Notes: generated by a model from the sequence alone, not told the origin. DNA of 41,105 bases from Minisyncoccota bacterium (GCA_035708165.1 DASSSZ010000002.1:1-41105), one strand, 5' to 3'; shown: positions 25,027 to 32,963, counted from the first letter of the stretch. Numbers and translations: made by a program.

Positions 25027-25082
25027 TGCCAGCATCATACCTGCGGGAGTAGGATACACAATGGTCAGACTAGGAGGACAAA

Positions 25083-25277
25083 GTGGACCCAATGCGGCTT
25101 AAGACCCGGAAAGAGAAGGACCTCGAGGACGCCCGCGTCAATGACGCTGCCATCGCCCGCATCGAAGGCAGGCCATGGCACCAGCAATGCGCAACGCAGC
25201 ATGTCCCCGATCCATCCGGTCAGGCAACGTACGATCCCGATGATCAGGGCGGCCCGATCACGGTCACGTCGCGCTAG
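25083..25277 (+). CDS. Small hypothetical protein (64 aa)
   Basis: AGGAGG 5 nt before GTG, followed by a terminator hairpin; no recognisable motif. Confidence 0.5.
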   Translation: MDPMRLKTRKEKDLEDARVNDAAIARIEGRPWHQQCATQHVPDPSGQATYDPDDQGGPITVTSR

Positions 25278-25289
25278 CCGAATCCATTC

Positions 25290-25322
25290 GCCACGCCCTT
25301 TCCGAGGGCGTGGCTCATTTTT
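25290..25322 (+). terminator. Intrinsic terminator
   Basis: gccacgccct/agggcgtggc stem followed by tcatttttt. Confidence 0.7.
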
Positions 25323-25349
25323 TGACATGGGCACGTATTCTGCTACCCT
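25322..25349 (+). promoter_or_regulatory. Sigma70-type promoter
   Basis: TTGACA-16 nt-TACCCT with an extended TG motif. Confidence 0.55.
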
Positions 25350-25393
25350 GCAAGCGGCACCTTGATCTCTCACACTACTAGGAGGAAGTTCTG

Positions 25394-26260
25394 ATGAACA
25401 TCCACTCGGGACGCGTTCTCCCGCTTGTCGATCAGATGATCGGCACCCGGTCGCTGCCGGTCCGCATTGCCATCTTCGGAAGCCGGCACGACAACTGGTC
25501 GCTCAAGAACCTGCAGCGTCCGGAGGATGCGGAGACGTACCCCGAATTCGTCGCTCGCATCCGGGCAGCGATCAGCGGGATCGGCGGCGGCCGGATCTTC
25601 GCGCCCAACCCTGTCGCGCCGAGCACCGGCGCGATCTGCCAGCAGGAAGACCTGATCCGGCATATCGACCTGGGCGGCCGCATGGAAATGCACCGCAACC
25701 AGGACCTTCATGCCGACGGCTCGTTCCTGCGGCAGATGGGCGATACCGGCATCTTCAGCGCCGGCGGCTGCGGCATGCTTATCGCGATCCGCGGCACGTC
25801 CGTGGTATTCGCGCACGTGAGCCGCGAGAGCGTCTTCGATCGTATCGCGGTCATGAGCCGCGGCGAGCGGCAGGATGAAAGCCGCCCATACTTCGGCGTC
25901 GCCGAAGCGGCGATCGCCGCGCTCGATGCCAAGGAGCATCCGGACGAGGTCTTCGCATGGCCGCTCTTCGGCCTGCCCCCCGACTCGTTCGAGCACAGCT
26001 TCGAGCACTCGCAATACGGGGCGTTCAATATCGCGCTCGGCGAGTACCTGGAGGCGCACCACAGCCGCACGGCCGCGCCGATCACCGACGATGCCGTCTA
26101 CCCCGACCTCTCGCAGCTCGTCCGCGAGCGGCTCGAGCTCGCCGGCGTCCCGCACGGGCAGATCTGCATGGATCATGCGTACGTCCCGGAGACCGTCCCG
26201 ACCACCCGCAACGGCGGCGGCTCTGCCCGCTACCTCGTCGCGGCGGTCCGCGAGGGCTAG
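25394..26260 (+). CDS. Divergent YfiH/PgeF (laccase-domain / polyphenol oxidase family)-like protein
   Basis: ADGSFL..SAGGCGMLIA..VFAHVSRES aligns by eye with DG..ADC..AAHAGWRG; DL..LELAGV in the C-terminal part. Confidence 0.6.
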   Translation: MNIHSGRVLPLVDQMIGTRSLPVRIAIFGSRHDNWSLKNLQRPEDAETYPEFVARIRAAISGIGGGRIFAPNPVAPSTGAICQQEDLIRHIDLGGRMEMHRNQDLHADGSFLRQMGDTGIFSAGGCGMLIAIRGTSVVFAHVSRESVFDRIAVMSRGERQDESRPYFGVAEAAIAALDAKEHPDEVFAWPLFGLPPDSFEHSFEHSQYGAFNIALGEYLEAHHSRTAAPITDDAVYPDLSQLVRERLELAGVPHGQICMDHAYVPETVPTTRNGGGSARYLVAAVREG

Positions 26261-26285
26261 TTCATGGAAATCCTCTCCTGGGGTG

Positions 26286-26316
26286 ACGCCGGCATACCTG
26301 CCGGCGTTTTCTTTTT
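26286..26316 (+). terminator. Intrinsic terminator
   Basis: acgccggca/tgccggcgt stem followed by tttcttttt. Confidence 0.75.
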
Positions 26317-26343
26317 GCCTTGCGTGCGTGCTACGATGGCCCG

Positions 26344-30530: not shown

Positions 30531-30572
30531 AAAACGAACCGCCGCCAGCGGATGCTGGCGGCGGTTCGTTTT
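30531..30572 (-). terminator. 16S transcript terminator (19-bp stem)
   Basis: aaaacgaaccgccgccagc-ggat-gctggcggcggttcgtttt; one arm is duplicated at 30477-30493. Confidence 0.8.
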
Positions 30573-30581
30573 GGGTCCATT

Positions 30582-32307
30582 CAATCCGACACGCGATCTG
30601 CAAACTCTTTCGTTCTGTCCGAAGCTATGCCAGTCTTTCCCGGCTGTCTGGATGGGGTTAGGGACATACCATCATTGTCCGTTCCGTGCTCAGCTGAGAC
30701 ACAGAACATCGACGATTCAATCGTGCATCCCGTAGGATGCGCGACGGGTTCCATTTTGGAATGAATCCACGAGCAGCTTCCGCTACCCGTGCCTTGTTAC
30801 GACTTACTCCCTGTCACCGAATTCACCTTAGGCCCCGATAAACGGGAACGTCGGGTGCTCCCGGCTTCCTTGAGTTGACGGGCGGTGAGTACAAGGCTCG
30901 AGAACGTATTCACCGCGGCATGCTGATCCGCGATTACTAGCGATTCCACCTTCACGGAGTCGAGTTGCAGACTCCGATCCGAACTGAGGTGGCATTTAGG
31001 GATTTGCTCCGCCTTGCGGCATTGCGCCCCGTTGTTTCCACCATTGTAGCGCGTGTGCAGCCCGAGACATCAAGGGACATGCTGACTTGGCGTCATCCTC
31101 ACCTTCCTCCCCCGTGAGGGGGCAGTATCGCCTGACACTTGTAACAGGCAACAAGGGTTGCGTTCGTTACCCCACTTAAGGGAACAATTCAAACCACGAA
31201 CTGACGACAGCCATGCATCACCTGCCTAGGACCCTCGAAGGCTTCCCTGCTTTCACAGGGCGTGCACCTAGGTTTCTAGTCTCGGTAAGGTTTTCCGTTT
31301 AGCGACGAATTAAGCCACACGCTCCACCGCTTGTGCGAGCCCCCGTCTATTCCTTTGAGTTTTAGCCTTGCGGCCGTACTACCCAGGCGGATCGTTTAAC
31401 GCGTTAGCTACGCCTCCCAGAGGGTCGATACTCCGGAAAGCCAACGATCATCGTTTAGGGCCAGGACTACTGGGGTATCTAATCCCATTCGCTACCCTGG
31501 CTTTCGTGTCTCAGCGTCAGGAACGCGCCAGCAAGCTGCCTTCGCATTCGGTGTTCCCCATGATATCAACGGATTTCACCCCTACACCATGAGTTCCGCT
31601 TGCCTCTCGCGCCCTCGAGTCATGCCGTTTCACCCGCGATTCCGAGGTTGAGCCCCGGGCTTTAACAAGTGACTAACATGACCGCCTACACACCCTTTAC
31701 GCCCAATAATTCCGGGTAACGCTTGGGGCCTCTGTATTACCGCTCCTGCTGGCACAGAGTTAGGAGCCCCTTATTCGTAGAGTAACGTCAAAAATTCCTC
31801 CTCTACAAAAGATGTTTACGTACCGAAGCACTTCATCCACCACGCGACATCGCTCCGTCAGGCTTGCGCCCATTGCGGAAGATTCTCGACTGCAGCCTCC
31901 CGTAGGAGTATGGGCCGTGTCTCAGTCCCATCGGTGGGGGCCGGGCTCTCACCCCCCCTAAGCGTCATAGCCTTGGTGAGCCATTACCTCACCAACAAGC
32001 TGATACTGCGCAGGCCGCTCCAGAAGCGAAAAAACTTTACTCTTGCGAGACTATCGGGAATTATTCCGGATTTCTCCGGGGTATGCCCGACTTCTGGGTA
32101 CGTTCCTACGTGTTACTACCTCGTCTGCCATGGGTCTAAACCCATTCGACTTGCATGCCTTATCCATGTCGCCAGCGTTCACCCTGAGCTAGGATCAAAC
32201 TCTAAGTAAAAGATCCCGAAGGATCCTTTTTCAATAGATCGGACAGAACGAAAGAATCAACAGACTCTCTCGCTCACAAACTGGTTATTTGCGTACGTGT
32301 CGGATTG
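30582..32307. repeat. 16S precursor processing stems (leader/trailer complementarity)
   Basis: 30606-30622 is the exact reverse complement of 32239-32255 (17 bp); 30582-30593 is the reverse complement of 32296-32307 (12 bp). Confidence 0.85.
30758..32210 (-). rRNA. rrs: 16S rRNA (~1450 nt, Parcubacteria-like, no large insertion; ends approximate)
   Basis: AGAGTTTGATCCTAGCTCAG, ACTCCTACGGGAGGCTGCAG, GTGCCAGCAGGAGCGGTAA, ATTAGATACCCC, AAGTCGTAACAAGG, and helix 45 with a GGAA loop. Confidence 0.98.
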
Positions 32308-32365
32308 TCAACGAACCATCTCTGGCCCGAGAGCCAAATGAAAACCGCTCGTATGCGGTGCGGAC

Positions 32366-32393
32366 AGTATACGGGTTCAAGGCGCCAAGTCAA
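32366..32393 (-). promoter_or_regulatory. rRNA promoter
   Basis: TTGACT-16 nt-TATACT. Confidence 0.8.
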
Positions 32394-32400
32394 GCGCAGA

Positions 32401-32431
32401 GGAAAAAGCGGCCCTGCCAAGGCAGGGCCGC
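32401..32431 (-). terminator. Intrinsic terminator
   Basis: gcggccctgcc/ggcagggccgc stem with a U-run on the minus strand. Confidence 0.75.
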
Positions 32432-32436
32432 CGCGT

Positions 32437-32880
32437 TCACGCATGGAATGACGCGAGGAATGCGATCAAGATCGCGCACACGATGATTGCCCGCCATGGG
32501 ATCCGCATCGTGATGACCTCCTGCCCTTCAGGCACCGCCGGGATATCCGGCTCCTGCGCCACACGCTGTGCAGCATGCACGCCTGCAATGAGCGCCTGCA
32601 CGGTCGTGCCGTTGGGGAATTCGATCTCCGACGGGTCGGTGCCAAGGCAGGTGCAGAGGAATCCGAGCGCTTCAGCGCATCGGAAGAAGATCGCTGAATT
32701 CGGATCATACCGGGGGATGATCTCCATCAGGAGCTTCAGATACTCGCCGGGATATTCCAGGATATCCTGGCAGAATGGGTCCCGTGCGCGATCCTGCAGC
32801 CGCGGGCCGCGAGGACAGAGCGCATGCACGCGCTCGACGGCCTCAAGGGCGCCGAGATCGTCCCTGTATGACAGCTCCAT
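32437..32880 (-). CDS. Hypothetical protein with C-terminal TM helix (147 aa)
   Basis: AGGAG upstream, terminator downstream, hydrophobic C-terminus IPWRAIIVCAILIAFLASF. Confidence 0.65.
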   Translation of the reverse strand: MELSYRDDLGALEAVERVHALCPRGPRLQDRARDPFCQDILEYPGEYLKLLMEIIPRYDPNSAIFFRCAEALGFLCTCLGTDPSEIEFPNGTTVQALIAGVHAAQRVAQEPDIPAVPEGQEVITMRIPWRAIIVCAILIAFLASFHA

Positions 32881-32963
32881 TGGTCTCTCCTAACTGACTA
32901 CTCCTGCCTTAGAGGTACCACCGGGACGGTCGCCGCGCAATACGGGCCGCCGCACCCTTTTCC

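Follow-up and report, generated by a model that had tools for sequence, protein, structure and literature searches.

Classically spaced Shine-Dalgarno motifs on a minority class of accessory genes in a Paceibacteria lineage without an anti-Shine-Dalgarno sequence

Pairing between the Shine-Dalgarno (SD) motif of an mRNA and the anti-SD sequence (CCUCC) at the 3' end of 16S rRNA is the textbook account of how bacteria find their start codons. In a 41,105-nucleotide (nt) stretch of DNA from a Minisyncoccota bacterium (GCA_035708165.1 DASSSZ010000002.1:1-41105), five genes carry strong SD motifs and the 16S rRNA gene has no anti-SD, which raises the question of why such motifs are there at all. 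The stretch, hereafter the window, makes up one complete 41-kb contig; the genome it comes from (G000; 750 kb in 6 contigs, 64% GC, 97% complete) belongs to a small uncultured bacterium of the Paceibacteria, within the Candidate Phyla Radiation (CPR). The best explanation that we can offer, and one to which we give an even chance, is that the five motifs are genuine canonical-type SD elements, belonging to a class of some 35 genes, and that selection maintains them on leadered accessory cassettes without their canonical partner; a reader or function outside the canonical scheme would follow from this. That the anti-SD can be lost has been reported before, and the residual SD class is apparently undescribed in the literature searched, where we found no paper on a conserved minority SD class or its cassette packaging. 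The genomes of the relatives used for comparison are all 0.5-1.3 Mb in size, some with inserts in the 16S gene; two are referred to by label, the same-family relative G006 (49% GC) and the closed genome G126 from another family.

The five motifs were located in all five cases as the preliminary description, a reading of the sequence alone, had described them. They belong to the following predicted cassettes, each with an open reading frame (ORF) whose length is given in amino acids (aa):

25026 to 25324, plus strand: cassette 1, a 64-aa ORF; promoter-like TTGCCA, 18 nt, TAGGAT at 25026-25055; AGGAGG at 25072-25077, 5 nt before GTG 25083; ORF end 25277; intrinsic terminator at 25290-25314 with a T-run.
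25322 to 26318, plus strand: cassette 2, a 288-aa divergent PgeF/YfiH-like protein; predicted promoter TTGACA (25322-25327), 16 nt, TACCCT (25344-25349); leader of about 37 nt; AGGAGG at 25380-25385, 8 nt before ATG 25394; ORF end 26260; terminator at 26285-26308.
29272 to 29739, minus strand: cassette 3, a 142-aa protein with tandem cold-shock domains (CSD), PF00313 in two stretches; GAGGAG at 29739-29734, 7 nt before ATG 29726; ORF end 29298; terminator at 29291-29272.
30128 to 30472, plus strand: cassette 4, an 81-aa basic ORF, antisense in the 16S-tRNA-Ile spacer; -10-like TACTCT at 30128-30133; GAGGAGG at 30171-30177, 5 nt before GTG 30183; ORF end 30428; terminator at 30435-30462.
32407 to 32891, minus strand: cassette 5, a 147-aa orphan protein; AGGAG at 32891-32887, 6 nt before ATG 32880; ORF end 32437; terminator at 32432-32407.

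A private terminator is thus found 3' of each of the five SD-led genes. The motifs of cassettes 1 and 2 share the 10-mer context ACTAGGAGGA (25069-25078 and 25377-25386), which has no further copy in the genome, and the two leaders may derive from a local duplication. The 288-aa protein has an Atlas feature score of 0.94 and a structural TM of 0.91 to a 174-member, mostly Minisyncoccota cluster, in which 39% of the members carry PF02578. PgeF edits MurC mis-products, and the gene lies directly 5' of murC, a coherent cell-wall context; it is a native PgeF-like cell-wall gene. The tandem-CSD protein has no close or donor-like homologue among 5.8 billion proteins, and its syntenic SD-led counterpart in G006, 25% identical, lies 3' of 16S-tRNA-Ile. 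For the 147-aa protein, we detected no match in 60 same-family genomes and no Pfam or PHROG family. Neither the 64-aa nor the 81-aa ORF has a Pfam or PHROG family or a homologue in the sequences compared, and both are candidate genes on the strength of their promoter-SD-ORF-terminator layout.

The ribosomal side of the question is set by two features of the window:

30755 to 32210, minus strand: 16S rRNA gene (Rfam match, model positions 1-1533, 1381 bits).
32366 to 32393, minus strand: promoter-like site 5' of the 16S gene (TTGACT, 16 nt, TATACT), a consensus match only.

The 16S gene is single-copy in the genome. Its helix 45 is intact; after it, at 30768 down to 30754, the 3' tail has the sequence GGAUUCAUUCCAAAA in place of the canonical GGAUCACCUCCUUA. 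We searched for CCUCC across the whole 16S gene and found none; it is also absent from 30 distinct 16S tails of the same family and order (0/30), and four closed one-contig genomes of the lineage hold exactly one 16S gene each, without anti-SD. The earlier claim of a ribosome without anti-SD is borne out by this tail and the CCUCC-free single 16S gene, and the loss is a lineage trait. A second 16S, which had been suggested, is refuted at lineage level by the four closed genomes. Ribosomal protein uL1 (PF00687) was not found in the 97%-complete genome, while 14 of 14 control genomes match it. A subgroup of the Parcubacteria, overlapping with the group that has no uL1, is already known from the literature to have lost the anti-SD (Tsurumaki, Saito, Tomita, Kanai 2022, RNA 28:1041, PMC9297842), and our genome shares with this subgroup the CCUCC-less 16S as a lineage trait and the absence of uL1. 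SD-scarce organisms lacking CCUCC are also treated in PMC10783764, and according to surveys, organisms without anti-SD have no recognisable SD (PMC6107228, PMC10783764). A residual class of correctly spaced SDs and its conservation are not described in these studies (PMC9297842, PMC10783764, PMC6107228), whereas both are present here.

Many 16S tails of the order can fold a small covarying hairpin at the former anti-SD position, in the form UUCC-N4-GGAA in some genomes and UUCA-N3-UGAA in others. It is seen at 30751-30768 (minus strand) in the window and at the 16S loci L001-L023, L115-L120, L196-L199 and L220-L221 of relatives. The tail that once docked mRNA may have become a structured element or belong to a processing stem.

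Across the genome, the motif is tied to start codons. In a crude codon-based gene call of G000 (627 genes covering 82% of the genome), a spacing of exactly 5 nt between the end of AGGAGG and the first start codon is seen in 9 genes, and any other spacing in 0-2. AGGAG peaks at 6 nt (13 genes) and 7 nt (10 genes), and the control words CCTCC, GGGAG, GAGGG, GGAAG and GGAAT (of which GGAAT is complementary to the actual tail) have a flat spacing profile. In total, about 35 genes (~5%) have AGGAGG, GGAGG or AGGAG ahead of the first start. The genome-wide frequency check proposed in the preliminary description therefore comes out with start-anchored AGGAG(G) above background, with a sharp spacing peak and flat controls. 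Only start-anchored statistics are informative here because most copies of AGGAGG are intragenic (697 of 804, as GAG-GAG codons); a motif-to-ATG profile made without gene calls is uninformative. SD calls at early alternative starts are unreliable, with rpiB, L24 and probably fusA as false positives; the true start of rpiB lies 54 nt further upstream, so that its AGGAG-type motif is coding sequence. When coding sequences were compared with a synonymous-codon shuffle, GGAGG had an observed-to-expected ratio of 0.56 and the complement CCTCCT one of 0.60, and GGAAGG was enriched 1.8-fold. Because the depletion of GGAGG is strand-symmetric, this test of SD-word avoidance says nothing on SD function; restriction avoidance is a possibility.

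The SD-led genes are short (median 150 vs 236 aa), and two-thirds of them have no Pfam family. The remainder are peripheral enzymes (Fic, 5'-nucleotidase, GH113, epimerase, GT2 and SpoVR) and tmk. Their GC content is 0.648 vs 0.652 for the genome, their GC content at third codon positions (GC3) is 0.82 vs 0.84 for size-matched genes, and their codon-usage scores are lower than those of other genes. Relative to the core, GC3 of the class is richer in lower-GC relatives (0.51 vs 0.47; 0.41 vs 0.33) and marginally poorer in G000. The class is also sharp in the same-family genome G006. The earlier statement that strong SDs occur only on accessory genes is right for most of the class, which consists mainly of small accessory genes, and goes too far for tmk, which is SD-led, and for the native PgeF-like 288-aa gene.

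The SD-led genes come with signals of their own on both sides. A full sigma-70-type promoter is present 15-120 nt upstream of 10 of 43 SD-led genes, compared with 0.4% at control positions; 51% have a -10 box at a distance of 17-50 nt upstream, compared with 7% of controls. Beyond an A-rich flank, nothing is conserved beside AGGAGG. Private terminators follow 36% of the SD-led genes in G000 vs 8-10% of other genes (p = 6e-5), 67% vs 5-11% in G006 (p = 5e-8) and 50% vs 12-15% in G126. Since these are leadered units with private promoters and terminators, the class can be described as autonomous promoter-SD-ORF-terminator cassettes. With the canonical SD, it shares the word (A)AGGAG(G), the distance of 5-7 nt to the start and the short 5' leader behind a sigma-70-type promoter; the CCUCC partner at the 16S 3' end is absent, with no substitute found in 16S, downstream of it or elsewhere. 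The cassettes also resemble phage morons, being small single genes with their own promoter, ribosome-binding site and terminator, scattered in islands. Unlike morons, they have no phage context in the window, matches to PHROG families are limited to 1 of the 20 unknown SD-led proteins, and some members are native and vertically inherited (PgeF-like, tandem CSD and tmk).

The motif recurs in orthologues of three of these families. PgeF-like homologues, which are 21-30% identical and come from genomes of 38-66% GC, were scored against a background from the same loci. Under uniform automated scoring, 4/8 are SD-led by 5-mer (p = 5e-4) and 7/8 by 4-mer (p = 4e-6), and by eye 8-10 of 11; all six genomes with a readable 16S tail lack CCUCC (6/6). 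In the tandem-CSD orthologues of the family (25-47% identity, 40-60% GC), a GGAG core stands 5-9 nt before the start in 7/7, vs 0/22 single-domain csp genes of the same genomes. The probability of the 7/7 is ~2e-7 from a per-locus background of ~0.11, and its significance is overstated as the kin are not independent. The tmk gene is SD-led in 6/29 genomes by 5-mer (p = 0.0014) and in 11/29 by 4-mer (p = 0.0004), and leaderless in 10/29; the genomes G053 and G071 combine an SD-led tmk with a 16S without CCUCC. Control families are at background, murA with 0/30 (5-mer) and 2/30 (4-mer) and rpiB with 1/29 and 6/29. Pooling 81 loci from relatives gives an AGGAGG-then-ATG peak at 5-9 nt. Among reciprocal best matches between G000 and G006, SD status is kept in 2/4 vs 9/248, a comparison with too few pairs, one of them a false positive, to count for much. 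The class thus exists as a set of cassettes of defined anatomy, with its motif conserved in orthologues and the anti-SD absent. Together, these counts indicate that the motif is probably under purifying selection.

The core genes appear to start translation differently. A TAnnnT box at -12 to -7 was detected in 21.6% of 218 genes with a nearly unambiguous start vs 1.0% of internal in-frame start codons. An unbiased 4-mer scan returned -10-box words as the dominant upstream signal in G000 and two relatives, and the box is at the leaderless position in G006 and G126 as well. Two genes of the window serve as a contrast to the cassettes:

26344 to 27756, plus strand: murC (Mur ligase domains), leaderless type, the contrast case; TACGAT -10 box, 8 nt before ATG 26344.
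27933 to 29243, minus strand: murA (PF00275), leaderless type, the negative-control family; TATGCT -10 box, 7 nt before ATG 29243.

Several further core genes of the window have a -10 box abutting the ATG. The core genes are leaderless as judged from these boxes, and the earlier description of housekeeping genes as leaderless agrees both with the boxes of murA, murC and the others and with the genome-wide statistic. We found no paper in the literature searched that ties CPR or the anti-SD-lacking Parcubacteria group to leaderless genes. In most relatives (L168-L195), the murA frame extends at least 20 conserved codons upstream of the start used in G000, which suggests an N-terminal extension that is absent from G000 and its close relative G003.

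How the two kinds of genes might work side by side can be outlined as follows. Each cassette would consist of a sigma-70-type promoter, a leader of 20-45 nt, AGGAG(G) at a distance of 5-7 nt from the start, an ORF that is usually small and evolves fast, and an intrinsic terminator, and the cassettes would be interspersed among leaderless core genes in a lineage without CCUCC. If purifying selection does hold the motif in place, its most likely present role is to signal initiation, or to protect the leader, in the leadered mRNAs of the cassettes. We infer that it acts in translation and that a non-canonical reader exists; this reader would be a protein or RNA at the platform of the 30S subunit, other than the 16S 3' tail. 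An anti-SD-independent AGGAG reader of this kind (protein or trans-acting RNA), providing a second, separately controllable initiation channel for leadered accessory cassettes beside the leaderless default, is a possibility that we put forward tentatively.

Several points weigh against selection for a working motif. SD-led genes lie in several genomic islands, with 11 adjacent pairs vs 4.2 expected (p = 0.0014); their position near tRNA and rRNA genes in the window, which had been remarked on earlier, is incidental to this genome-wide clustering. They have an orthologue in half of a same-family genome in only 8% of cases vs 35% for other genes, and among genes of up to 200 aa the figures are 6% and 27%. 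The class shows up only weakly and diffusely in the closed genome G126. The tmk gene switches between SD-led and leaderless modes across the order, so that the motif is dispensable for tmk. The flanks of the motif (A before GGAG, G after) fit CCUCCU and not the present tail AUUCCA, as would be expected of relics of canonical SDs too. Among the candidates examined, no reader of AGGAG was found. In Escherichia coli, altering the anti-SD does not stop ribosomes from choosing the correct start sites, and SD motifs influence how efficient initiation is (PMC7043885), a result that gives no precedent for a selected SD function without pairing. Finally, the starts and promoters used throughout are predictions from sequence.

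Several of these points are what one would expect if the motifs were hitch-hiking relics, the main rival to a selected motif and in our view an unlikely one. The cassettes would then come from a fast-turnover mobile pool (phage, plasmid or host-derived) shaped under a canonical anti-SD, and their SD, -35 box and terminator would be functionless here. The poor conservation and clustering of SD-led genes fit this well, as do the moron-like promoter-ORF-terminator packaging, the fit of the motif to a canonical anti-SD with some sites extended toward AAGGAGGTGA, the shift of class GC3 toward mid-range relative to the core in 3/3 genomes and a few imported-looking members, such as SpoVR and an epimerase with a GC3 of 0.66. 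However, syntenic tandem-CSD orthologues have retained the motif through vertical inheritance, at protein identities of 25-47%, and members of the PgeF-like and tmk families have retained it too; relics leave this retention unexplained because the order is without CCUCC throughout. Since the sampled order wholly lacks CCUCC, the donors would need to be outside it. The GC of the class equals that of the genome, the tandem-CSD protein has no close homologue among the 5.8 billion proteins, and only 1/20 unknown SD-led proteins has a PHROG match. Recent import from SD-using donors, which had been proposed, is therefore unsupported as a general explanation, given the native GC, the native PgeF-like gene and the motif kept in orthologues of three families; the best-hit check suggested along with it returned no donor-like close homologue for the tandem-CSD gene. 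A phage origin in particular was considered and rejected, PHROG families being nearly blank for the unknown SD-led proteins. Still less credible, and hardly to be entertained, is that the motifs reflect chance, miscalled ORFs or a promoter element, with AGGAGG as a -10-like box for another sigma factor. At its 5-nt spacing, AGGAGG is nearly co-positioned with the -10 box of leaderless genes, and some SD calls (rpiB, L24 and probably fusA) are false. The spacing peak with flat controls and the terminators after the ORFs speak against chance, no conserved partner motif occurs 5' of AGGAGG, and a promoter role is ruled out because only the A-rich flank is conserved and ordinary promoters lie further upstream.

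The evidence favours the earlier suggestion that the motif is read by something else; the candidates named for this, a GGA-binding regulator (examined here as CsrA) and the cold-shock protein, fail. Residual pairing with the tail is improbable. The tail has UUCC in the register of the last four CCUCC bases, GGAG could form three Watson-Crick pairs and one G-U pair with it, and GGAG is the invariant core in the tandem-CSD family; the class is, moreover, sharply defined in G000 and G006, whose tails have UUCC, and weak in G126, whose tail has UUUC. But GGAA, the perfect match to the tail, hardly rises and is far outnumbered by GGAG, TGGA is absent whereas AGGA peaks, and tail-complementary words are not enriched. 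SD-led PgeF-like and tmk genes also occur in genomes with UUCA-type tails, and the tail tends to fold into the small covarying hairpin. A gene-specific regulatory site, with AGGAG recognised by a regulator (CsrA-like, or the cold-shock protein) in place of the ribosome, is more doubtful again: GGAG is followed by TAG in several tandem-CSD orthologue leaders and could be autoregulatory there, but a regulator does not explain the fixed distance of 5-7 nt to the start across unrelated genes. No CsrA gene was found in the genome. Some genomes with SD-led PgeF-like genes have no CSD match at all, so the cold-shock protein was rejected in the role of a general reader.

We consider it very improbable that a canonical anti-SD is hidden in an unassembled second 16S, in a tail relocated behind an insert or in a separate RNA with a 16S end. 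The canonical 16S 3'-end 13-mer GGATCACCTCCTT does occur outside 16S: 27 of 201 genomes from the order hold 31 copies between them, and the reversed control gives 2. However, these copies have unrelated flanks, several are 13-nt extended SDs on the other strand or coding sequence, the reversed control contains the rare word CTAG, and each of the four closed genomes has its single anti-SD-less 16S. The copy in G000 (C1:175692-175704) is intergenic, between two hairpins; copies in relatives are at L125-L136. A relocated tail was rejected, as most relatives have no CCTCC within 1.5 kb 3' of 16S and the position is not conserved. Two CCTCC copies 3' of 16S in G000 are complements of the 81-aa ORF's own motifs.

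Ribosomal protein bS21 adjoins the 16S 3' end in other bacteria, and both bS21 and a four-domain bS1 are encoded in the genome. The bS21 gene (G000 C3:93356-93714; L286:1312-1671, minus strand) specifies a protein of 119 aa, roughly double the normal length, whose C-terminal tail is basic and then Ala/Pro/Gln-rich. Autoregulation of bS21 in the style of Flavobacteria was rejected: rpsU is near-leaderless, with TATAGT ~11 nt before the ATG, and not SD-led. In the structural picture of the Bacteroidetes/Flavobacteria, the anti-SD is present but sequestered. These bacteria likewise have a minority of strong SDs, with most genes lacking an SD. An occluded anti-SD and a few SD-led genes such as rpsU have been described for them (PMC10783764). 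There, the exceptions are explained by bS21 autoregulation; the present genome, by contrast, has lost the anti-SD altogether, and its bS21 gene is of the near-leaderless kind. Mycobacteria and Deinococcus (e.g. PMC4633059) likewise combine leaderless and SD-led genes in one genome but, unlike this lineage, have retained the anti-SD.

A whole order is thus without anti-SD, and yet some genes, a defined set, retain the textbook motif in the textbook position. If the motif is functional without 16S pairing, it would point to a non-canonical reader and a natural two-channel expression system. If the motifs are relics, the accessory genes of these symbionts would cycle through a pool shaped by canonical ribosomes, which would inform on hosts and gene flow. 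On the practical side, starts in such genomes will be misplaced by gene callers based on one learned start model.

The surroundings of the cassettes have some further features. The tRNA-Ile gene (29902-29975, minus strand) is a neighbour of the cassettes and outside the SD class:

29870 to 30092: tRNA-Ile element, with the tRNA inside a perfect 19-bp inverted repeat (29870-29888 and 30011-30029), a 23-nt imperfect inverted repeat and a 36-nt copy of the tRNA-Ile 5' half at 30057-30092.

The rRNA genes are unlinked: 16S and tRNA-Ile are followed by protein-coding cassettes, and the 23S gene is on another contig (G000 C6:99736-103170). Elsewhere in the window, ~9000-14300 is a stretch of 51-55% GC inside the 64% GC genome and may be a compositionally foreign island. 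The codon-based gene call overlooked minus-strand ORFs in it, for example 10426-10917, 10924-11577 and 11570-12643.

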